NCBI GenBank assembly: GCA_001783805.1
Contig: MFNS01000001.1
Span: 192,649-256,648, forward strand
DNA length: 64,000 bases
Source: Candidatus Levybacteria bacterium RIFCSPHIGHO2_01_FULL_40_16
Lineage (GTDB): Bacteria; Patescibacteriota; Microgenomatia; Levybacterales; UBA12049
Direction of reading: 5' to 3'
Part shown: piece by piece, positions 16,829 to 58,172 of the stretch
How positions within the stretch are numbered: position 1 is the first letter of the stretch
Layout: each line of letters starts with the position of its first letter
The notes under the pieces: generated by a model
Told to the model about the DNA's origin: nothing
Database searches by the model: none
The model's input: only the letters and a program-made list of their open reading frames with translations
Translations under genes and position numbers: made by a program

Positions 16829-18061
16829 TCATTTTTCCCCGGCGTATTTTCGAAGAATGGGAACTTTAAGCGCGACTGCTCCGGCGATTATTACTGTTGC
16901 CACTCCCCCTACAACAACAGATAAGGGAGCCCCGATTGCTCCGGCCAGAAGTCCCGCTTCAAATTCTCCAAGCTGAGGCCCTCCCATAAAAAAGATCATG
17001 TTAATTGATGTCATTCTCCCCCTAATGTAATCCGGCGTCATGAGTTGACGAATAGTGTTCCTGATGACGGTGCTAATACTGTCCCCTGCGCCAACCAAGA
17101 AAAGGGCTAAAAATGACAGCCAAACATATCTGGATAATCCGAACATTATAGTAGCCAAAGCATAAATGAAAACGCCCAAAAGAAGAAGTTTTCCCTGATT
17201 TTTAATTTTTCCAATAAATGCCATGACGTATCCGGTCAAAACAGCGCCAATTGATTGTGCAGCGTATAAAATACCAAAACCAATTGGTCCGACATGGAGA
17301 ATTGTTTCTGCAAAAATGGGCAAAAGAGAATTTGCCGATGAGAAGAAAGTGCTAAAAAAGTCCAGAACCATTGTCGACCAGATAATAGTTTTTGATTTAA
17401 TGAAAATCAGACCTTCGAGAATTGCACCAAAAGAAACCTTGGACGGTTTTCCTTCAATTTCTCCCGATGTTTTCATCATAATTAATGCCGTAATTACTGC
17501 CAGAAAAGAAATAGCGTTAATCAGATATATACTTCCGACCCCATATTGCTTGATAACAAAACCGCTTAACGCAGGGCCAATAACCATTGACATTTGAAAC
17601 ATAATTACATTTAAACTCATTGCATTAGCCAAGTGGTCTTTATGGACAAGGCTGGGAATAATGGCTTGTCTTGGAGGCGCGTCAAAAGCAACCGCTACGG
17701 CAGATAGACTAGTAACAATGTAAATTATCAGTGGATTCACGGTGTTATTAAGGGTGGCAAAAGCAAGAATGAAAGAGAGTATTGTTAAGGTAATTTGGGT
17801 AATAAAAAGGATTTTGCGTCGATTATGGGCATCGGCAACCGCTCCTGCAAGAAGTGCAAAAATTGCGATTGGCAGAAATCTGGCAAGTCCAATTAGTCCA
17901 AGCGAAATAGCGGAGTGAGTAATTATGTAAATATGCCAATTGATCGCGGCAAACTGCATTTGAGAGCCAATAGTGGAAATCAACAGCGCAATCCATAACA
18001 GCCGGAAATCCCGATATTTTAAGGCCGCAAACCTACCATGCTTAACGCTAGGCATACTCAT
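16829..18061 (-). CDS. MFS transporter
   Basis: About 12 TM helices; MFS motif around GAVADAHNRRK. Confidence 0.7.
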   Translation of the reverse strand: MSMPSVKHGRFAALKYRDFRLLWIALLISTIGSQMQFAAINWHIYIITHSAISLGLIGLARFLPIAIFALLAGAVADAHNRRKILFITQITLTILSFILAFATLNNTVNPLIIYIVTSLSAVAVAFDAPPRQAIIPSLVHKDHLANAMSLNVIMFQMSMVIGPALSGFVIKQYGVGSIYLINAISFLAVITALIMMKTSGEIEGKPSKVSFGAILEGLIFIKSKTIIWSTMVLDFFSTFFSSANSLLPIFAETILHVGPIGFGILYAAQSIGAVLTGYVMAFIGKIKNQGKLLLLGVFIYALATIMFGLSRYVWLSFLALFLVGAGDSISTVIRNTIRQLMTPDYIRGRMTSINMIFFMGGPQLGEFEAGLLAGAIGAPLSVVVGGVATVIIAGAVALKVPILRKYAGEK

Positions 18062-18348
18062 GATTGCTTAGTATATCAGAAAAATCTTTTAGTAAAATTA
18101 GTTATTGACAACCAATGTTATTTTTTGCATAGTATATTTATGGCAAAGAAAAAAGTCACTAGAAGATCTTCAAAGAGTCTCTTTCAAACAAACCCAAATT
18201 TAAAGTGGTTGCTTCCCTTGTTTATTCTAGCCTACTGGCTAACTACAGTTATAAAATAATATCTCAAGAGTACTTCCGTTCCCAATATTGATTAAATTAT
18301 TCCGCAGAATTAGAGTTTTCTCTCGAATAGGATTTTGTATGCCCGTTG

Positions 18349-18440
18349 TGTACCGCCATGGGGATTCGAACCCCCTCCCAATTTTAGCGCTCGGCTTTTC
18401 AGAACTATTCGTTTACGCTTCGTGCTGCCCGGAACGTTAA
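18349..18440 (-). ncRNA. tRNA-like fragment (canonical T-arm GGGGG-TTCGAAT-CCCC, no matching 5' acceptor strand) downstream of tRNA-Glu
   Basis: The T-arm and a 3'-acceptor-like TGGCGGT-A are present, but no complementary 5' strand is found; it also shares a TTCGTTTAC motif with the tRNA-Val outer half. Confidence 0.3.
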
Positions 18441-18453
18441 TTTTGGCCTTTTG

Positions 18454-18527
18454 TACCTCCGACCGGATTCGAACCGGTGATTCTCTGGCTGAAAACCAGA
18501 TGTCCTAGGCCGCTAGACGACGGAGGC
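18454..18527 (-). tRNA. tRNA-Glu (anticodon TTC)
   Basis: GCCTCCG acceptor, D-arm TCGTCTAGCGGCCTAGGACA, loop TTTTCAG, T-loop TTCGAAT; no encoded CCA. Confidence 0.8.
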
Positions 18528-18770
18528 TTGATGTTTAATTAAATTTTCAATTGCAACCCTGCTTTTAAGCGATTTTAAATAAAATTCTCTTTTTCGAGCT
18601 TCTGATAACGTTTCATATTCTTCTTTGTAAATAAGTTTAAACGGTCCCCGATTTTTTGTATACTTTGAACGTCCTTTATTGTGATCTGTAAGCCGGCGAT
18701 TAATGTCAGTCGTACTGCCAATGTAATGTCTACCGTCAATATCACTTCTTAATATATAAGTCGTAAACAT
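18513..18770 (-). CDS. small GIY-YIG nuclease-family protein (start trimmed to MFTTYILRS); 3' end overlaps tRNA-Glu by about 15 nt
   Basis: YILRS...RHYIGSTTDINRRLTDHN...YTKNRGPFKLIY...REFYLKS: GIY-YIG core. Confidence 0.6.
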   Translation of the reverse strand: MFTTYILRSDIDGRHYIGSTTDINRRLTDHNKGRSKYTKNRGPFKLIYKEEYETLSEARKREFYLKSLKSRVAIENLIKHQASVV

Positions 18771-18969
18771 TTTGGTCCTAGGTTCCGATTTAATCGCGAA
18801 TGCTCGATGGATAAATCCATCGGCACCGCTAGCCCCGATGATCGGTGTCATCGGGATCCCGCACGAATGAAATTCGTCGGGAACGATGGCGGCAAGCATT
18901 ATTGATTATACCAACTTTCCTAAAAAAACCCAAGACTCACTTAAGAGCCTCGGGAGAATAAACTTTAAT

Positions 18970-19632
18970 TTATTCTAACTTCCTGCGAAGTCCCTCAACT
19001 ATTTCTTTAGCGCTATTTTGTCCGCCCAGTCCGAAAGCAATACCTCCTGCAATAGCCAACATTGCTACAAAACCTGTAAATAATATCCTGATCAAGTCTG
19101 TAGCAACACCCAACTGATTAAGCACTGCCAAGATTACGAATACATTTACCGCCCAGCGGGTAACAGATGCAATCCTATTGGCCGTATTTGAAGATATTCC
19201 TTTGACTGATGCCAAAATCAGGTTGTGAGCCAGACTTCCTAACACAAAGCCGACAACTGCAATGATGGCTGCAACAAAAACATTTGGGAGATAGAGTAAG
19301 AATTCATTAAGAATCGTTACAACTCTGGGAAGTCCCCAAATGTCTGCTGTTGGAAGTAAGAAAATAATAATTATAAACCATCTGACAATTTCGGCAAAGA
19401 TGTTCGACCAGGAAAACTCTTCATTTGCTTCGGGCACACCGTACTTCCTCAACAAAGCCTCCACCCTGAGAGCTTTGAAAATTCCTAAAACTATTTGCTT
19501 GAGAATGGAAGCAATGATGATACCGATAAGAAGAACTACCGTTCCGGCGATTAAGTTTGGCACAAAACTTCCTACCACTGCAACACCGTTATTCAGAGAA
19601 GCAAGGAGTGTTTGACCAATATCTTGTGTCAT
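18970..19632 (-). CDS. membrane protein with repeated TM-helix modules
   Basis: Six or so TM segments; no confident family assignment. Confidence 0.45.
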   Translation of the reverse strand: MTQDIGQTLLASLNNGVAVVGSFVPNLIAGTVVLLIGIIIASILKQIVLGIFKALRVEALLRKYGVPEANEEFSWSNIFAEIVRWFIIIIFLLPTADIWGLPRVVTILNEFLLYLPNVFVAAIIAVVGFVLGSLAHNLILASVKGISSNTANRIASVTRWAVNVFVILAVLNQLGVATDLIRILFTGFVAMLAIAGGIAFGLGGQNSAKEIVEGLRRKLE

Positions 19633-19809
19633 GTTTTATTTCACCTCCTTTTTACCCGCCGCTCAAGTGCCCTTTGCGACGTGTTCGAATAGAACTGAAA
19701 AGTCGCAAAGTAAACTTAGGCGGGCCTTTGATCTTATATTATGCAGTTTAACTTCCCTTGTCAAGAGATTAGAGTATTGTTATAATTAGACATTGCACAG
19801 CATCCTTAA

Positions 19810-19824
19810 TTCTGCTTTGCAGAA
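19810..19824 (+). repeat. 15-nt hairpin TTCTGC-TTT-GCAGAA directly abutting the tRNA-Lys(TTT) 5' end
   Basis: The same stem recurs at 45589-45603, 47199-47213 and 61195-61209; variants at 45900-45914 and 47479-47493. Confidence 0.6.
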
Positions 19825-19896
19825 GGGTCGGTAGCTCAGTGGTAGAGCAGGAGCCTTTTAAGCTCTTGGTCCTGGGTTCGAATCCCAGCCGGCTCA
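19825..19896 (+). tRNA. tRNA-Lys (anticodon TTT)
   Basis: GGGTCGG acceptor, TAGCTCAGTGGTAGAGC D-arm, loop CTTTTAA, TTCGAAT T-loop. Confidence 0.85.
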
Positions 19897-19953
19897 CAAA
19901 GTTTTTAAGCAGAAAATCAGCTTCACAACTTGTCATTAAAATGACACACCCCG

Positions 19954-20403
19954 ATGCGATTCAAACCAGACGACCACTACTTGAAAATATTTCTTAATAA
20001 GTTATACTACGACATCATGATAGGAATAGAAATCAAAGGAAATATTAGGGATCAGTTTTGCCTAAAAAATGGTCATTGTGATCTGCAAAGACTATTTATA
20101 GATGGCCAGCAAAAAGATCAAGCAGAGGGAGGCATGTCATTGCAGGAAATAAAAGAACTTTGTTCTAAAGAGGGTTTAAAACCAAGCAATGATTACTATG
20201 GCTCTGCTATACCAAACGAGATGAGAAAAAAAATCAGTAATGTCATTTTCACTGCTGATTGTACCGCAGGAAAAATTAAAGGGACAAACTATACAAATTG
20301 TGGGAGCGTTTGCGCTTATTTAACGACATATGAACCAGAATCTAAGCTCGAAGAGCTTGCAGTTAAAGTGATAAAAGCTCAGTGGCTTCTAAATAATAGA
20401 TAA
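19954..20403 (+). CDS. hypothetical protein (first cassette after tRNA-Lys; real start probably downstream of the annotated ATG)
   Basis: The ORF begins inside a roughly 120-nt leader that is repeated non-coding at 20491-20600. Confidence 0.3.
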   Translation: MRFKPDDHYLKIFLNKLYYDIMIGIEIKGNIRDQFCLKNGHCDLQRLFIDGQQKDQAEGGMSLQEIKELCSKEGLKPSNDYYGSAIPNEMRKKISNVIFTADCTAGKIKGTNYTNCGSVCAYLTTYEPESKLEELAVKVIKAQWLLNNR

Positions 20404-20460
20404 TCTTTTAAAGACATATTGTCTTAACTTCTGGTAAATCTTCAGATATTCATATAAAAT

Positions 20461-20490
20461 TGGTTCGAAGGTCGGGATTTCGGTCTCACA
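20461..20490 (+). repeat. direct repeat TGGTTCGAAGGTCGGGATTTCGGTCTCACA, resembling the tRNA-Lys 3' end (copy A)
   Basis: It shares GGTTCGAA...CTCACA with the tRNA-Lys T-loop/acceptor 3' strand; copies B and C follow. Confidence 0.6.
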
Positions 20491-20584
20491 CAGTTTTTAA
20501 CATAAAACTAGCCTCTGAATGTGTTCAGAAAATGGAATACCCCGATGAGATTTGAACCATTTGTGCAGGTTAATAAATACAGGA

Positions 20585-21331
20585 CTATTTCTTAATACAA
20601 TCAAATATTATATATGAAGGGTAACTGCTCCTATCTTTATACCATTTTCTATCCAACCCCTTACTTATATCAAGCGGTCGAGGTTCGATTATCTTATCGA
20701 TCTGAAAATTGTTATTAACAATAGCAGAATAATAATCTTGTAATGTCCAGTGATATGCAATTGAACTTAGCTTTTTTCCATCTATATTCATCGTGAAATC
20801 ATAAGGCAGCCCACTTCTGAAATATTCAAAATCGCCAATTCTTAACTTATTTCTCATATAAAAATCAAAAGCCGGATGTGGTTCACTTATAATTAGTCTG
20901 CCTCCTTTATGTAATAAAAGTGCGCATTGTTTAATTACAGATTCAATATCTGCTTTACTTGATAAGTGAGGGAGAAGTAGGGAAATTACTATTAAATCAA
21001 GTACTTCATTTCTTATTGCTTCCATATTTCTTGCATCCATTACCTTGAAGTTTATAGATAATCCTAATTCTTTTGCTTTATTCTTACCGATATCAATTAA
21101 CTTAGAAGAGTAATCTATACCAGTGCATATTGCTCCCTTTTTTGCCAAAAATACTGTGATTGCACCATCTCCACAAGCAATATCTAATACTTTCTTCCCT
21201 TCTACATTTCCAATAATTTCAAAAAGTGCTGGATCTAATATATATTTCCTACCTTTAGTTCGTCCACCAGCATAATCCGAAGCTGTCTGATCCCAAAATT
21301 TTTGACCTTTCACATATACTTTATAACACAT
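20585..21331 (-). CDS. class I SAM-dependent methyltransferase
   Basis: VLDIACGDG motif I; Rossmann-fold spacing. Confidence 0.7.
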   Translation of the reverse strand: MCYKVYVKGQKFWDQTASDYAGGRTKGRKYILDPALFEIIGNVEGKKVLDIACGDGAITVFLAKKGAICTGIDYSSKLIDIGKNKAKELGLSINFKVMDARNMEAIRNEVLDLIVISLLLPHLSSKADIESVIKQCALLLHKGGRLIISEPHPAFDFYMRNKLRIGDFEYFRSGLPYDFTMNIDGKKLSSIAYHWTLQDYYSAIVNNNFQIDKIIEPRPLDISKGLDRKWYKDRSSYPSYIIFDCIKK

Positions 21332-21406
21332 TTAATATTAATATTCGAATACAGCTTTAACATATTGCTGTAAGGAGTAGTAAATTTGTTGGTATTTTGA
21401 TAAAAT

Positions 21407-21436
21407 TGGTTCGAAGGTCGGGATTTCGGGCTCACA
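21407..21436 (+). repeat. tRNA-Lys-3'-end-like direct repeat (copy B)
   Basis: TGGTTCGAAGGTCGGGATTTCGGGCTCACA: 29/30 identical to copy A. Confidence 0.6.
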
Positions 21437-21463
21437 AAATCTTAACAAAATTATCTTCGTAAT

Positions 21464-21754
21464 TTATTTATATTCCCTGTGCGTTCCAGTATGGGTTACT
21501 ATTGCAAATAGGATGATTCTCATTTTTCCTTCCGGATCAAAATCCCAAATAATTCGTAAGTCTCCGCTGATCCAACTACTCCATCGTTCCCCAAAGATTC
21601 TCGTATTGACTTTATGTGATTTAAGCGAAGGGTAAAAAGGTTTTCGCCTTAAGAAATTTAAGGCTTTTTTTGTCCTTTTCTCTTTTTCTTGATTTCCTTT
21701 TACTATTGCGTTATAAGTATGTTTAAAGGAGTCTAGGAAACGGAGGATATACAT
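21464..21754 (-). CDS. RelE/YafQ-family type II toxin
   Basis: LKSHKVNTRIFGERWSSWISGDLRIIWDFD...IILFAIVTHTGTHREYK matches the RelE/ParE fold signature. Confidence 0.6.
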   Translation of the reverse strand: MYILRFLDSFKHTYNAIVKGNQEKEKRTKKALNFLRRKPFYPSLKSHKVNTRIFGERWSSWISGDLRIIWDFDPEGKMRIILFAIVTHTGTHREYK

Positions 21755-21762
21755 ACAATCGT

Positions 21763-22020
21763 TTAAATAGTTCTAAGATAGTTATCAAGTTCTTCTTCAG
21801 TTTTGACGTCAGTATATTCTCCCTCTTTTATATTTTGAAGGCCTTTTGCAATCAATTTTTCCGTCGCCTCATCTACAAGTGGAATATTTACCTCTTTTAA
21901 ATATTTCTCAGCGAGAGATATCTTGATAATCTCAGCTTCAGACAATAAACGGTACTTGTTTCGTAGAAAAGCTAAAACACCTTCTAGTTCCGGTGTTTTG
22001 GTTAATCTAATTTGCGACAT
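21763..22020 (-). CDS. putative antitoxin partner (upstream of and adjacent to the RelE-like gene)
   Basis: 85-aa acidic protein immediately upstream of the toxin, 8-nt gap. Confidence 0.4.
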   Translation of the reverse strand: MSQIRLTKTPELEGVLAFLRNKYRLLSEAEIIKISLAEKYLKEVNIPLVDEATEKLIAKGLQNIKEGEYTDVKTEEELDNYLRTI

Positions 22021-22090
22021 ATAGTGCCTATATTACTACATAAAATACCCACAGTCAAGTAGTAATTACATATCGTTGAGAAATTCAAAC

Positions 22091-22119
22091 CGGTTCGAAG
22101 TTCGGGATTTCGGTCTCAC
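22091..22119 (+). repeat. tRNA-Lys-3'-end-like direct repeat (copy C)
   Basis: CGGTTCGAAGTTCGGGATTTCGGTCTCAC. Confidence 0.55.
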
Positions 22120-22349
22120 TGTTTTTTCTTATCCTTGTTGGTTTTTGTAACACAGATCCCCAGATGTCCCTTATCAACGATAACCGGACCGGAATGAGTT
22201 TTGAACCGCTCTCCTTCCCTTGCCTTTATCCCCACTTGATATGATAATCCTTTATATAATCCTATGTTTTCCTCTGGAATGACAAATCTATTATGATTCT
22301 TTCCATTTTTCCTTTTTTCAACCATAACGGACATAATATAATATTTCAC
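22116..22349 (-). CDS. hypothetical small protein
   Basis: 77-aa ORF; no domain recognised. Confidence 0.3.
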   Translation of the reverse strand: MKYYIMSVMVEKRKNGKNHNRFVIPEENIGLYKGLSYQVGIKAREGERFKTHSGPVIVDKGHLGICVTKTNKDKKKQ

Positions 22350-22392
22350 AGAGTCTTGTCAATTCTTCCGAAATATTTTATAATTACATCTT

Positions 22393-22947
22393 ATGATTCC
22401 AGTCACGTCTTTAAGGCCGGGGATAACTTATGAGGAACACGGAGATATTTTTGAAGTTTTAACCTATAACAACATGCATCTTCGGAAAACCAGCTCCGTG
22501 GTACAGGTAAAAGTCAGAAGTTTGAGAAAAGGCTCAACTTTAGAAAAAACTTATGGGAGCAACGGACAGGTGGAGCCGGTCACAATCCAAAAAAAAGAAC
22601 TCCAATATCTGTACAAAGACAATGATTCCTGTTATTTTATGGACCCGCAAACTTTTGAACAGATTAGCGTTTTAACCAAGAATTTATACGGCAGCAATTA
22701 TTTAAAAGAAGGGGAGACAGTAATAATTAGCTTTAATAAGGAGGAGGCCTTGAGCATGGCGCTTCCCCCGAAAATGAAATTCCGGGTTACGGATACCAAT
22801 CCCGGCGTCAAAGGCAATTCCGCCACCAATGTTTATAAAGATGCTACTCTGGAAAACGGCTTAACTACCAAAGTTCCTTTGTTTATCGACATCGGAGACG
22901 AAATTATTGTTGACACCCGCGACGGCTCCTACACTGCCCGCGCATAA
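22393..22947 (+). CDS. efp: elongation factor P
   Basis: EF-P length and the KOW-like N-domain; conserved loop region around KTSSVVQVKVRSLRKG. Confidence 0.85.
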   Translation: MIPVTSLRPGITYEEHGDIFEVLTYNNMHLRKTSSVVQVKVRSLRKGSTLEKTYGSNGQVEPVTIQKKELQYLYKDNDSCYFMDPQTFEQISVLTKNLYGSNYLKEGETVIISFNKEEALSMALPPKMKFRVTDTNPGVKGNSATNVYKDATLENGLTTKVPLFIDIGDEIIVDTRDGSYTARA

Positions 22948-45605: not shown

Positions 45606-45869
45606 CTATTCTAGCTTATCATAGTTTTCGAAAATGATTTTTCTCAATCTATGTCCAAAACCAGACTTTAAAAATTGTTTTCTTTTATCTGCGCACAATC
45701 TGCAATAAAAGTTTTCGAAATAAACTAAACGCCATGGCCGATTTGTCTTCGTATATCTAGAAAGTCCATCATTATGTTCCTTCAATCTAGATTCAATATC
45801 TTTTATTGTTAATCCTATATATGTCTTGCTTTTGTTGTGTAAACTTTTCAAAAAGTAAACTTTATACAT
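45606..45869 (-). CDS. small GIY-YIG nuclease-family protein
   Basis: MYKVYFLKS...TYIGLTIKDIESRLKEHNDG...WRLVYFE: GIY-YIG core; close paralog of the 47227 gene. Confidence 0.65.
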   Translation of the reverse strand: MYKVYFLKSLHNKSKTYIGLTIKDIESRLKEHNDGLSRYTKTNRPWRLVYFENFYCRLCADKRKQFLKSGFGHRLRKIIFENYDKLE

Positions 45870-47226: not shown

Positions 47227-47502
47227 ATGTATAAAGTTTATTTATTGCATAGCCTAAAAGACACAGGGATGTCTTACGTTGGATTAACAATTAAGGAAAT
47301 AGACAAGAGAGTTGAAGAACATAATAAAGGACTATCACAATATACAAAAACATTTAAGCCGTGGAGATTAGTTTATTACGAACTTTTCTATTGCAGAACA
47401 TGTGCCGAAAAAAGAGAACAATTCTTGAAAAGTGGAGTAGGATATCAATTAAGAAAACATCTGCTTACATTTAAGAATTCTTCTTTGAAGAACGGGGGTT
47501 AG
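47227..47502 (+). CDS. small GIY-YIG nuclease-family protein; 3' end runs through a hairpin variant (TTCTTCTTTGAAGAA) into the split-tRNA locus
   Basis: MYKVYLLHS...YVGLTIKEIDKRVEEHNKG...WRLVYYE. Confidence 0.65.
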   Translation: MYKVYLLHSLKDTGMSYVGLTIKEIDKRVEEHNKGLSQYTKTFKPWRLVYYELFYCRTCAEKREQFLKSGVGYQLRKHLLTFKNSSLKNGG

Positions 47503-57109: not shown

Positions 57110-57547
57110 CTATTTAATTTTTTGCAATCTCCTGTATGTCCTGTCCCTATGACAATTAGCGCATACCAAGTCGCATTTTGCTATTTCTTCCTTTATTTTA
57201 TCAAATTTTACTAATTTTCGAAAGGTGAGAAACGAAATGCTTGCCACCTTTTTCTTTCCATCACGATGATCGAAATCCATCACCCATGCAGGGTATTTCT
57301 TCCCGCAGTCAAAGCATGGCTTGTTTTTAATTTTTCCCAAAAACTCCTTACGCTCTACTATGTATTTTAGTTTTCTTTTTTTGGCTAGATATAGCTGTCG
57401 CTCTCTGTTTTGATGATAATAATTTTTTCCGCGGATTTTATAACAATCTTTGCATTTTTCGTAATACTCACCAGCCCTTAAACCGCTTTTTCTTCTATAA
57501 AAATCTTTCAATTCCTTACTCAATCCACACTTCGAACATTTTTTCAT
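57110..57547 (-). CDS. HNH endonuclease; its stop codon directly abuts the tRNA-Phe 5' end
   Basis: Cys pairs (CSKCG, CFDCG) and DFDHRDG...CANCH HNH motif. Confidence 0.7.
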   Translation of the reverse strand: MKKCSKCGLSKELKDFYRRKSGLRAGEYYEKCKDCYKIRGKNYYHQNRERQLYLAKKRKLKYIVERKEFLGKIKNKPCFDCGKKYPAWVMDFDHRDGKKKVASISFLTFRKLVKFDKIKEEIAKCDLVCANCHRDRTYRRLQKIK

Positions 57548-57729: not shown

Positions 57730-57987
57730 CTAGGCATGATCATTCCAGTCTTTTAATCTTTTCCGCAAATAACTTTTGCCCAAACGAGTTTTGAGATATT
57801 TTTCTCTACGATAAGCATCAATTTCGCTTAGGCTGGCTTCGTAGTATATTATATCAAATGGAGCATATGGGCTGGTAGACTTAACCATTTTCTCATTATG
57901 CTCTCTAAATCTTCCTCTTAAATCATTAGTACATCCTGTATACAGAAATTTTCTGGACGTACTTTTTAAAACATAAACGTAAAACAT
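57730..57987 (-). CDS. small GIY-YIG nuclease-family protein, 5 nt downstream of the tRNA-Val locus
   Basis: MFYVYVLKS...LYTGCTNDLRGRFREHN...FDIIYYE. Confidence 0.65.
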   Translation of the reverse strand: MFYVYVLKSTSRKFLYTGCTNDLRGRFREHNEKMVKSTSPYAPFDIIYYEASLSEIDAYRREKYLKTRLGKSYLRKRLKDWNDHA

Positions 57988-57991
57988 CTTG

Positions 57992-58172
57992 TGGACTCTA
58001 GAGGATTTGAACCTCTGACATCTTCGATGTAAACGAAGCGCCCGGCCTGACTGGACTTTGTGGACCCGAGAGGATTCGAACCTCTGACCTTCTCAGTGTA
58101 AATGAGACGCTCTACCAACTGAGCCACGGGTCCATTCAAAGTCGGGCAGGTCTACCGCTGAGCTAAGAGTCC
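57992..58172 (-). ncRNA. split tRNA-Val-like gene: 5' half (acceptor GGACTCT plus D-arm, 58146-58172) and 3' half (57992-58060: anticodon arm with TAC, T-arm AGAGG-TTCAAAT-CCTCT, acceptor AGAGTCC-A), with a complete tRNA-Val nested between
   Basis: The outer acceptor strands pair 7/7 (one G-U); the 5' half matches the Pro-locus 5' half over TAGCTCAG..GGTAGACCTGCCCG; the nested tRNA is flanked by GACTTTG / CAAAGTC. Confidence 0.4.
58061..58133 (-). tRNA. tRNA-Val (anticodon TAC), intact, nested in the split locus
   Basis: GGACCCG acceptor, TGGCTCAGTTGGTAGAGC D-arm, loop TTTACAC, T-loop TTCGAAT. Confidence 0.85.

Follow-up and report, generated by a model that had tools for sequence, protein, structure and literature searches.

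Introduction

Integron cassettes, including those found in clusters of attC sites lacking integron-integrases (CALINs), are small and mostly carry a single gene, often a toxin-antitoxin gene or a gene of unknown function, together with a terminal recombination site. They are inserted in a polar manner at one primary site, and arrays without an adjacent integrase are possible. The pdif modules of Acinetobacter plasmids and the integrative mobile elements exploiting Xer (IMEX), such as the CTX phage at dif, are small modules moved by a recombinase that they do not encode; dif comprises XerC and XerD arms in an 11-6-11 arrangement, and two inverted copies of the site fold into a hairpin in CTX. 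Here we analyzed a stretch of 64,000 nucleotides (hereafter the window) from Candidatus Levybacteria bacterium RIFCSPHIGHO2_01_FULL_40_16, a member of the candidate phyla radiation (CPR; contig MFNS01000001.1, positions 192,649 to 256,648), in which small gene cassettes lie in tandem behind the 3' end of a tRNA-Lys gene. Each cassette closes with a conserved right end (RE), and the first two open with a conserved left end (LE). Sequence comparison lets us describe the anatomy of the array and its junctions, the presence of RE and LE around unrelated cargo at three tRNAs, empty sites, free combination of the families of ends, and a chromosomal gene embedded in a cassette. We propose, with a probability of roughly 0.55, that a recombinase acting in trans has accreted the units, as non-autonomous integrative cassettes, at the 3' end of the tRNA gene.

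Islands seeded at tRNA genes, as known for the tycheposons of Prochlorococcus, grow by serial integration, by which older elements are displaced outward (10.1101/2020.12.28.424599). The locus in the window resembles the tycheposon islands in starting at a tRNA 3' end, in having repeats between the elements that may be tRNA-derived att sites, remnants, and pieces made of cargo alone, in the strong variation of content between close relatives, and in inversions centered on the island. On the other hand, the units in the window are only 0.6-0.95 kb long and hold one gene or gene pair without an integrase or a replication module, the repeat is a conserved 77-nt cassette end that has 7 nt in common with the tRNA and also occurs at other tRNAs, and the host is a CPR bacterium. 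The cis-mobilizable elements (CIMEs) of streptococci have att sites on both sides, lack integration genes, and accrete in tandem at tRNA-Lys and other genes (PMC5704250). They are potentially mobilizable by the integrase of a related element and have been described as decay products of integrative and conjugative elements (ICEs) and integrative and mobilizable elements (IMEs) of several kb (PMC5704250). Tandems at a tRNA 3' end that lack integration genes and have att or att-like sites on both sides are common to CIMEs and the window, as is the potential to be mobilized by the integrase of a related element. The locus acts like a tRNA-anchored accretion of CIME-like elements, the units of which are unusually small, integrase-less, and modular; their ends form interchangeable families, and they are present at tRNA-Glu and tRNA-Val too. 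In contrast to CIMEs, many of the minimal units retain both ends, one of them with a captured chromosomal gene, and no helper element was identified. The retained ends and the captured gene point to a population of dedicated mini-cassettes.

The preliminary description of the window, made from its sequence alone, had also offered an integron-like array as an explanation. The array does resemble integrons and CALINs in consisting of small, mostly single-gene cassettes, each closed by a conserved site. This likeness is an analogy only: the junctions lack R'', L'', L', and R' boxes and read GTTTTTA where an integron would have GTTRRRY, a RYYYAAC partner is missing, a tRNA 3' end takes the place of attI as the primary site, and cargo orientation is mixed. 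Furthermore, the proposed crossover has conserved sequence to its left and to its right (RE and LE), and at least one cassette in the window has its own promoter-like site. Identity with an integron or a CALIN was rejected, as no attC motif was seen on reading the junctions and no IntI was found in the window. The pdif modules and IMEX are similar in their small gene modules (including toxin-antitoxin genes), short conserved sites, and tandem arrays at one site, but the site in the window is unlike dif, the repeats are direct instead of alternating, and the target is a tRNA end. The hairpin formed by the inverted sites of CTX is reminiscent of the RE core and an inverted box in the LE, although the folding of an RE joined to an LE is weakly supported. 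In the literature on integrons or cassette arrays in CPR bacteria, we found nothing specific to such a system.

Organization of the array

Coordinates without a label refer to the window, and L-numbers (L001-L130) are the contig labels of the sequences compared. The tRNA-Lys gene and every RE terminate in CAC (at positions 19897, 20489, 21435, and 22119), by which the array is divided into units of 592, 946, and 684 nt (Table 1). The first variable base is position 19898, one base past A73-C74 of tRNA-Lys. Conserved sequence is back at ~22355, where 38 nt match the region upstream of the gene for elongation factor P (EF-P) in L122 at 87% identity, and the island is therefore placed at 19898-22354. 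All three REs are on the strand of tRNA-Lys, as is the case in eight arrays of relatives, whereas one of the cargo open reading frames (ORFs) is on the + strand and four are on the - strand.

A cassette array at the tRNA-Lys 3' end, as had been suspected from the window sequence, is borne out by the different genes found at this position in relatives, by an essentially empty locus in L019, and by the junctions lying after CAC. The window has a GC content of 37.7% and 17 tRNA genes. The local gene order is that of a major facilitator superfamily (MFS) transporter (-), tRNA-Glu (-), GIY-YIG (-), MscS-like (-), tRNA-Lys (+), the array, EF-P (+), and UvrA (+), and EF-P borders the island in all relatives. 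The distal tail of the island, which is unique to this species and has neither an LE nor an RE and no homologue among the sister loci, represents an older remnant or else the flank that originally lay on the distal side of the tRNA.

Table 1. Features of the cassette array and its borders in the window.
Feature	Position	Strand	Remarks
tRNA-Lys(UUU)	19825-19897 (ARAGORN); 19825-19896 (Rfam)	+	Rfam, 72.3 bits
Proposed attB-like core GGCTCAC	19891-19897	+	final 7 nt of tRNA-Lys
Cassette 1	19898-20489		592 nt
Left end of cassette 1, LE1 family	19898-19968	+	opens AAAGTTTTTAAG; small hairpin TGTCAT/ATGACA
Inverted T-loop-like box in LE of cassette 1	19948-19967		ACCCCGATGCGATTCAAACC; pattern search
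Cargo of cassette 1	19954-20403	+	hypothetical ORF, 149 aa; ORF list
Right end RE-A	20413-20489	+	~77 nt; nhmmer E 1e-20
Cassette 2	20490-21435		946 nt
Left end of cassette 2, LE1 family	20490-20584	+	opens ACAGTTTTTAAC; hairpin TCTGAA/TTCAGA
Inverted box in LE of cassette 2	20539-20558		ACCCCGATGAGATTTGAACC; pattern search
Cargo of cassette 2	20585-21331	-	class I S-adenosylmethionine (SAM)-dependent methyltransferase, 248 aa
Right end RE-B	21359-21435	+	nhmmer E 3e-17; core ...GGGCTCAC = tRNA-Lys end
Cassette 3	21436-22119		684 nt
Cargo of cassette 3	21464-22020	-	gene pair, putative toxin-antitoxin: 96 aa (21464-21754) and 85 aa (21763-22020)
Right end RE-C	22044-22119	+	closes array; nhmmer E 4e-16; pattern match, 3 mismatches
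Distal variable tail	22120-22354		235 nt; 77-aa ORF 22116-22349 (-) with own promoter-like site
EF-P promoter	22356-22384	+	promoter scan; return of conserved chromosome
efp	22393-22947	+	conserved chromosome

Right and left ends of the cassettes

The three direct repeats that had been noted in the window are real and stand where they had been placed. The 30-mer TGGTTCGAAGGTCGGGATTTCGGTCTCACA occurs three times on the + strand, exactly at 20461-20490, with one mismatch at 21407-21436, and with three at 22091-22120, against 0.00 matches expected by chance in 100 shuffles. The conserved unit is larger than these 30 nt: the first two repeats are alike across 84 nt, and a profile built from all copies covers ~77 nt per site, detecting those in the window with nhmmer E-values of 1e-20 to 4e-16. 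This RE consists of ATAAATTG, ~12 nt, (G)ATAAAT, ~7 nt, TATTC, an A-rich box, and GGTTCGAAG[G/T]TCGGGATTTCGG[G/T]CTCAC. RE-A displays two ATAAAT-like boxes ~21 nt apart, the A-rich box, and the core GGTTCGAAGGTCGGGATTTCGGTCTCAC. In the alignment of 13 RE copies from 8 contigs, conservation between species extends over the full length.

The sequence following tRNA-Lys and that following the first repeat had been regarded as homologous for about 120 nt. The homology is significant but shorter, spanning ~70 nt (19899-19968 versus 20491-20559) with a score of 44 against 16.6 +/- 2.5, which none of 2000 shuffles reached. The LE delimited in this way is ~70-95 nt long and opens with A[A/C]AGTTTTTAA, so that the junctions read ...GGCTCAC followed directly by A[A/C]AGTTTTTAA. 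The hairpins in the LE copies are unlike in sequence. One candidate part of the LE, TATTTCTTAATA, was rejected, as its copy in cassette 2 is the 3' coding sequence of the methyltransferase gene and is conserved in the orthologues. No further copy of the RE or LE was found in the window; the three REs and two LE boxes are all in the array, with the half-sites split such that an LE alone abuts the tRNA and an RE alone closes the array. This confinement is at odds with the possibility, considered beforehand, that the repeat is a motif upstream of many genes.

The likeness of the repeat to tRNA-Lys had been read as a partial duplication of the tRNA gene. What the two share is the T-loop-like GGTTCGAA box and the terminal (G)GCTCAC, the latter matching the tRNA end at 7 of 7 positions in RE-B and 6 of 7 in RE-A and RE-C. 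As a whole the likeness is weak (pairwise p ~0.07), the repeats do not match the tRNA model, and the distance from the GGTTCGAA box to CAC is 17 nt in the RE versus 12 nt in the tRNA (5 nt longer). ARAGORN and Rfam (E<=10) detected only the genuine tRNA, and the acceptor-like end of the RE does not pair, by reading, with the 5' end of tRNA-Lys; the RE was rejected as a tRNA gene, pseudogene, or fragment. Since the same RE follows tRNA-Glu and tRNA-Val in relatives (see below), we regard it as belonging to the cassettes, as the P-arm and core of an attP-like site, instead of being a displaced tRNA end, and abandon the duplication of tRNA-Lys as its source.

The same ends around other cargo in related genomes

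A scan of metagenomes with the RE core yielded five low-GC contigs with genuine copies, and MscS-like orthologues (84-90% identity) gave access to the syntenic locus of seven further species. Altogether, 8 further contigs, all from related organisms of low GC content, contain the ~77-nt RE, always 3' of a co-oriented tRNA. Behind tRNA-Lys, L003 has an LE, a GNAT gene, and an RE; L004 and L013 have a helix-turn-helix (HTH)/PIN pair, an 18-26-nt copy of the tRNA-Lys end, AbiEii/DUF6922, and an RE; L016 has a 174-aa ORF and an RE, then further genes; L120 has three REs bounding multi-gene segments; and L122 has a HAD hydrolase and a degenerate RE. Behind tRNA-Glu, L004 has a 179-aa ORF and a divergent RE, and behind tRNA-Val, L005 has a 97-aa ORF and an RE. 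The cargo is unrelated among the arrays and in either orientation (GNAT, AbiEii/DUF6922, HAD, MsrA/MsrB/Fic, and others). Whether related genomes have the same genes in the same order had been named as a test of the array, and they do not, as the cargo differs in every relative. In L019, which is essentially empty, 6 nt separate tRNA-Glu from efp, and all that follows tRNA-Lys is a remnant of ~115 nt that terminates in a copy of the tRNA-Lys end, 13 nt long. The tRNA-Lys sequence is identical in all compared relatives up to GGCTCAC, and the flanks diverge at the next base; the encoded CCA is kept in L019 and L003 only.

Four families of right ends were distinguished, namely the 77-nt RE, a 41-nt family, of which L120 has three copies, RE3 (GCAGTCTGTTTAGGGTACTAGCCGGCTCAC), which L016 carries and L118 carries three times, and copies of the tRNA-Lys end, and all of them terminate in the (C)GGCTCAC of tRNA-Lys. 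True copies of the tRNA-Lys end (13-26 nt) serve as alternative cassette boundaries in L002, L004, and L019. There are two families of left ends, both with an inverted T-loop-like box. LE1, A[A/C]AGTTTTTAA...ACCCCGATGNGATTYRAACC, follows the tRNA in the window and L003, an RE in the window and L120, and the 41-nt element in L120, in which the tRNA is followed by the opening motif only. LE2, CCAATGATATTTG...GGATTCGAAC, follows an RE in L016 and RE3 in L118. In these junctions, the types of right and left ends combine freely, as predicted for recombinant junctions of independent cassettes.

Comparing cassette gain and loss had been suggested for this locus. The content indeed differs among relatives, but no gain or loss was seen within the species, for which six assemblies were available. 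These assemblies are independent and identical, so the array is not an assembly artefact.

Cargo genes and a packaged chromosomal gene

The methyltransferase of cassette 2 had been recognized as SAM-dependent from its translation, and Pfam agrees (Methyltransf_25, E 2e-17). The protein is rare: out of 5.8 billion proteins, only 14 were homologues at E<=1e-20. Its orthologues in L126, L127, and L128, which are 81% and 76% identical, adjoin a Cupin-NUDIX-Zn-ribbon-DUF192 neighborhood. The same neighborhood is present in the window at ~49.5-50.9 kb, without the methyltransferase gene. Neither LE nor RE was found beside the orthologous genes, and the stretch 20490-20584 is absent in L126, L127, and L128. 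DNA homology to the orthologue regions (84%) is confined to 20586-21367, so that it reaches no farther than the stop codon at one limit and runs ~30 nt past the start codon, in the upstream direction, at the other; in the comparison with L127 and L128, it ceases at ~21360-21367, at the onset of the RE. As the limits of homology coincide with the LE and the onset of RE-B, LE and RE are not sequences associated with the gene. The methyltransferase gene is naked in one lineage and packaged between an LE and an RE in another. The methyltransferase also matches the PADLOC profile 'mad2' (mads_2; E 5e-23, profile positions 282-402 of 492). This match covers the methyltransferase domain only, and probably reflects generic domain similarity rather than a component of a defense system.

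The ORF of cassette 1 is called with 128 or 149 aa in L007-L012. The 128-aa form starts at 20017, and this start fits a predicted promoter at 19981-20008. No Pfam, NCBIfam, PHROG, or PADLOC family was found for it, nor any homologue in a sister locus. Cassette 3 had been described as carrying a RelE/YafQ toxin with its antitoxin. Its two small genes are co-directional with an 8-nt gap, a geometry that fits a toxin-antitoxin pair, but the family assignment is sub-threshold, the 96-aa protein matching only YafQ_toxin (E 0.004, 17.8 bits, cut-off 30). The proteins of cassette 3 had no match in the PDB, NCBIfam, PHROG, or PADLOC. An AlphaFold single-sequence model of the toxin candidate has a helix-helix-4-strand pattern at low confidence (predicted local distance difference test score, 52). 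The other ORFs of the array have no family. In the promoter scan, promoter-like sites precede the ORF of cassette 1 and the distal 77-aa ORF.

Proposed mechanism and candidate recombinases

From this layout, we infer a circular intermediate, a recombinase acting in trans and its type, an order of arrival, and possible present mobility as follows. The 30-mers would be the core of the ~77-nt RE of small non-autonomous integrative cassettes, each composed of an LE, a cargo of one gene or a pair of genes on either strand, and an RE ending in GG[C/T]CTCAC. On a circular cassette, RE and LE would be joined, forming ~150-170 nt of attP-like sequence. This site would be acted on in trans by a site-specific recombinase from elsewhere in the genome or from a helper element, with the 3' end of a tRNA gene or a resident RE as the partner, and the crossover would take place at or within the shared GGCTCAC core. 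A newcomer would insert beside the tRNA and displace the older cassettes outward, and such cassettes may be mobile at present.

Features of the ends bear on the type of enzyme. The amount of conserved sequence to the left and right of the core (~77 nt of RE and ~70-95 nt of LE), with its two ATAAAT boxes at a distance of 21 nt, looks, on sequence grounds, more like the complex attP of a tyrosine integrase. In serine integrases, the geometry of attP differs from that of attB in that a motif is shifted outward from the crossover in attP. Compared with the tRNA, the RE has its GGTTCGAA box 5 bp farther out, which recalls, by analogy, this attP/attB geometry.

No tyrosine integrase was found in any of the compared loci. 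A large serine recombinase gene (580 aa) overlaps, with its own 3' end, the 3' end of tRNA-Lys in L015/L123 (8977-10719) and L124, and the gene of L123 is carried by an element, at least 7 kb long, that also has HTH_17, HTH_3, and FtsK-like genes. A second large serine recombinase (579 aa, 58% identical; L125 1549-3288) likewise overlaps the 3' part of tRNA-Lys, and a recombinase fragment lies behind tRNA-Glu in the same contig (5118-5402). Their link to the cassettes is circumstantial, since these elements bear no RE, LE, or tRNA repeat at their far ends.

A gene for a RAYT (REP-associated tyrosine transposase)-like Y1 transposase of 227 aa is located directly upstream of tRNA-Gly in L126 (2620-3400). 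It belongs to Y1_Tnp in Pfam and matches REP_Tyr_transpos in NCBIfam at E 4e-7, below the cut-off; it is flanked by the palindrome AAGGATCAACCTT...AAGGTTGATCCTT, which is unrelated to RE and LE. IS200/IS605-type elements (palindrome-associated transposable elements, PATE) were rejected as the identity of the cassettes, given that the LE hairpins differ, that the RE hairpin lacks covariation, and that no Y1 transposase was found in the window.

The bolder view, that the Levybacteria possess an integron-like capture system unrelated to integrons, with tRNA 3' ends (T-loop box and terminal CAC) as the primary insertion site, several interchangeable families of joined RE and LE, packaging of chromosomal genes, and a recombinase in trans, is one we put forward tentatively and consider doubtful. 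In such a system, the large serine recombinases at the same tRNAs may be the enzyme; another possibility is that the substrate is a folded strand, with the RE core paired to the inverted box of the LE.

Weighing the proposal against alternatives

Several findings weigh against accretion by a trans-acting recombinase. In the window, Pfam scans of 19 ORFs and reading of the remaining translations gave neither a recombinase of the tyrosine or serine type nor a transposase, in agreement with the preliminary description, which had seen no integrase, and no recombinase is physically linked to an RE in any compared locus. At the far ends of the L123 and L125 elements, neither RE, LE, nor a tRNA-Lys repeat was found. 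Among the six assemblies, which come from different samples, the island is identical throughout (100%, 2750 nt), with neither gain nor loss of a cassette; this lack of polymorphism weighs against current activity. Cassette 3 has 28 nt from RE-B to its first gene, and their likeness to the LE is not significant. At tRNA-Glu and tRNA-Val, the shared core is reduced to CAC, which is short for the overlap of a tyrosine recombinase. Finally, an RNA or single-stranded DNA hairpin within the RE was predicted but rejected, with 0 compensatory pairs and no excess over shuffles.

Much of this would also be expected if integrase-carrying islands or prophages at tRNA-Lys had been reduced to an att arm and a gene or two, so that the units are inert relics that were never mobile as such. 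There is no integrase in or near the array, the array is invariant, the LE is not significant in cassette 3, and neither end is present in the distal tail. In addition, full-size elements bearing a recombinase integrate at tRNA-Lys in relatives, and decay followed by accretion is a published route to such tandems (PMC5704250; 10.1101/2020.12.28.424599). However, random deletion would repeatedly have to spare both LE and RE around a single gene, and both ends recur around cargo in cassettes 1 and 2 of the window, in L003, in L120, and in the types of L016 and L118. The methyltransferase gene, which is chromosomal elsewhere, abuts LE and RE without any other element-derived DNA. The conservation of the RE over its full length across species suggests that both ends are under selection, as they are in non-autonomous elements. 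For these three reasons, we rate relics lower than non-autonomous cassettes and regard them as unlikely, even as the foremost rival.

The second alternative is that the junction of an RE and an LE (~150-170 nt) is itself a non-coding repeat resembling a REP doublet forming hairpins (REPIN) or a miniature inverted-repeat transposable element (MITE), inserted between pre-existing genes that are not cargo at all. One ground for considering this is the folding of the junctions. A junction folds into an imperfect hairpin of ~110 nt, in which GGTTCGAA pairs with TTYRAACC, with z-scores of -1.7 to -3.5. The reverse complement of the LE1 box resembles the 3' part of tRNA-Lys (p ~0.01), and the RE core resembles the reverse complement of the LE2 box without significance (p 0.18). 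A hairpin made of the inverted LE box and the tRNA or RE core is thus suggestive only, because the similarity of the arms is marginal. The presence of the inverted box in both LE families and the RAYT-like gene of L126 could be added in favor, although the palindromes beside that gene are unrelated to the ends. Against it, the split half-sites at the two ends of the array are predicted by recombination and not by insertion of whole units, the relocation of the methyltransferase gene is left unaccounted for, and all copies of RE and LE in 64 kb lie within one array instead of being dispersed, for which REPIN/REP sequences with a RAYT were rejected. We consider this alternative improbable.

Homologous exchange, possibly stimulated by homing endonucleases, with the tRNA, RE, and LE as homology arms and no dedicated recombinase, would make use of the tRNA genes as 100% conserved flanks, and four GIY-YIG genes beside tRNAs in the window, others beside tRNA-Lys in relatives, and displaced fragments of tRNA-Glu and tRNA-Val adjoining GIY-YIG genes are in line with it. 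Yet it does not explain why the junctions lie exactly after CAC, why the RE occurs behind three tRNAs, or why unrelated families of ends share only GGCTCAC, and there is no GIY-YIG gene within the array, which makes it very improbable. That the repeat acts in cis on expression or as an RNA, for instance as outward promoter, terminator, or small RNA, and merely recurs in the cluster is hardly tenable: the RE of L016 does have TTGATA and TATAAT separated by ~17 nt (-35/-10-like), and a G-U-rich hairpin is possible on the + strand only, but the downstream gene is sense or antisense with REs lying between convergent, tandem, or divergent genes, a consistent T-run is missing, the promoter and terminator scan passes over the copies in the window, the hairpin lacks covariation, no Rfam family was found for the repeats at the gathering threshold or at E<=10, and the linkage to tRNAs and the shared GGCTCAC end are left unexplained.

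CPR genomes are tiny, and the routes by which they acquire accessory genes are little known. A compact and repeatable layout, in which units of LE, cargo, and RE are lined up at a tRNA end, accounts for a hypervariable spot across a group of Levybacteria. If the cassettes are indeed mobilized in trans, they would make up a minimal gene-shuffling system with integron-like logic built on tRNA ends, and a chromosomal gene seen both inside and outside a cassette bears on the unsolved origin of gene cassettes. For delimiting accessory DNA in CPR metagenome bins, RE and LE are of practical use as markers. Should the units be no more than relics, the locus would be an ordinary tRNA-associated islet, of value mainly for annotation.

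Other observations at the tRNA genes

Four GIY-YIG genes (85-128 aa) adjoin tRNA genes in the window (18513-18899, 45606-45869, 47227-47502, and 57730-57987). In relatives, a GIY-YIG gene lies between tRNA-Lys and MscS-like, or there is none; given this varying presence, the genes are themselves variable, like free-standing homing endonucleases. Beside tRNA-Phe, a Cys-rich ORF of 145 aa (57110-57547) is HNH-like by eye, with no match in Pfam. Downstream of tRNA-Glu (18453-18527), a 25-nt fragment at 18346-18374 (-), ~80 nt behind the gene, is 100% identical to the 3' end of tRNA-Glu of L019, L020, L118, and L119, and the acceptor stem of tRNA-Glu in the window differs on both strands from the allele of these relatives. 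It seems that the whole tRNA-Glu gene was replaced together with the adjacent GIY-YIG gene, and that the old 3' end was left behind. Similarly, tRNA-Val(tac) at 58060-58133 (-) is directly followed by a 5'-truncated tRNA-Val at 58000-58057 (Rfam 32 bits, model positions 9-63), which resembles the allele of L005; the GIY-YIG gene at 57730-57987 comes next.

The block of tRNA-Lys, MscS-like, and tRNA-Glu with the cassettes (~18062-22354) is inverted compared with L004 (1611-5755), L013, and L019, relative to the flanking MFS and EF-P genes, and L016 shares the orientation of the window. In L004, the block is bordered by two RE copies in inverted orientation, and an inversion through these RE sites is conceivable. 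A small conserved ORF (18038-18259, +; L004 5545-5727; L120 ~1518-1658) goes with the tRNA-Glu side and has a core of ~41 aa, MAKKKV.R.SSK.LF.T.PN.KWLLP..., to which no Pfam family corresponds; its product is probably a membrane peptide.

The scans for RE-like sequences outside the group gave matches that were set aside. In genome contigs, the RE-core match in L001 is in a coding region of a high-GC member of Anaerolineales without CTCAC or a tRNA and is ascribed to chance. The 97 matches to the relaxed RE core in viral contigs were judged irrelevant, nearly all being one conserved coding sequence from high-GC phages, and the remaining ones are also in unrelated high-GC (55-68%) sequence. The RE3 pattern had no match in viral contigs. 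Two IMG/VR contigs (68% GC) unrelated to the Levybacteria lineage, L129 (1551-1579) and L130 (2932-2960), contain 29 nt identical to the 3' part of tRNA-Lys with no full tRNA around them. These 29-mers are presumably the attP of unrelated actinophage-like elements, and the end of tRNA-Lys would thus appear to serve as an attachment site elsewhere too.

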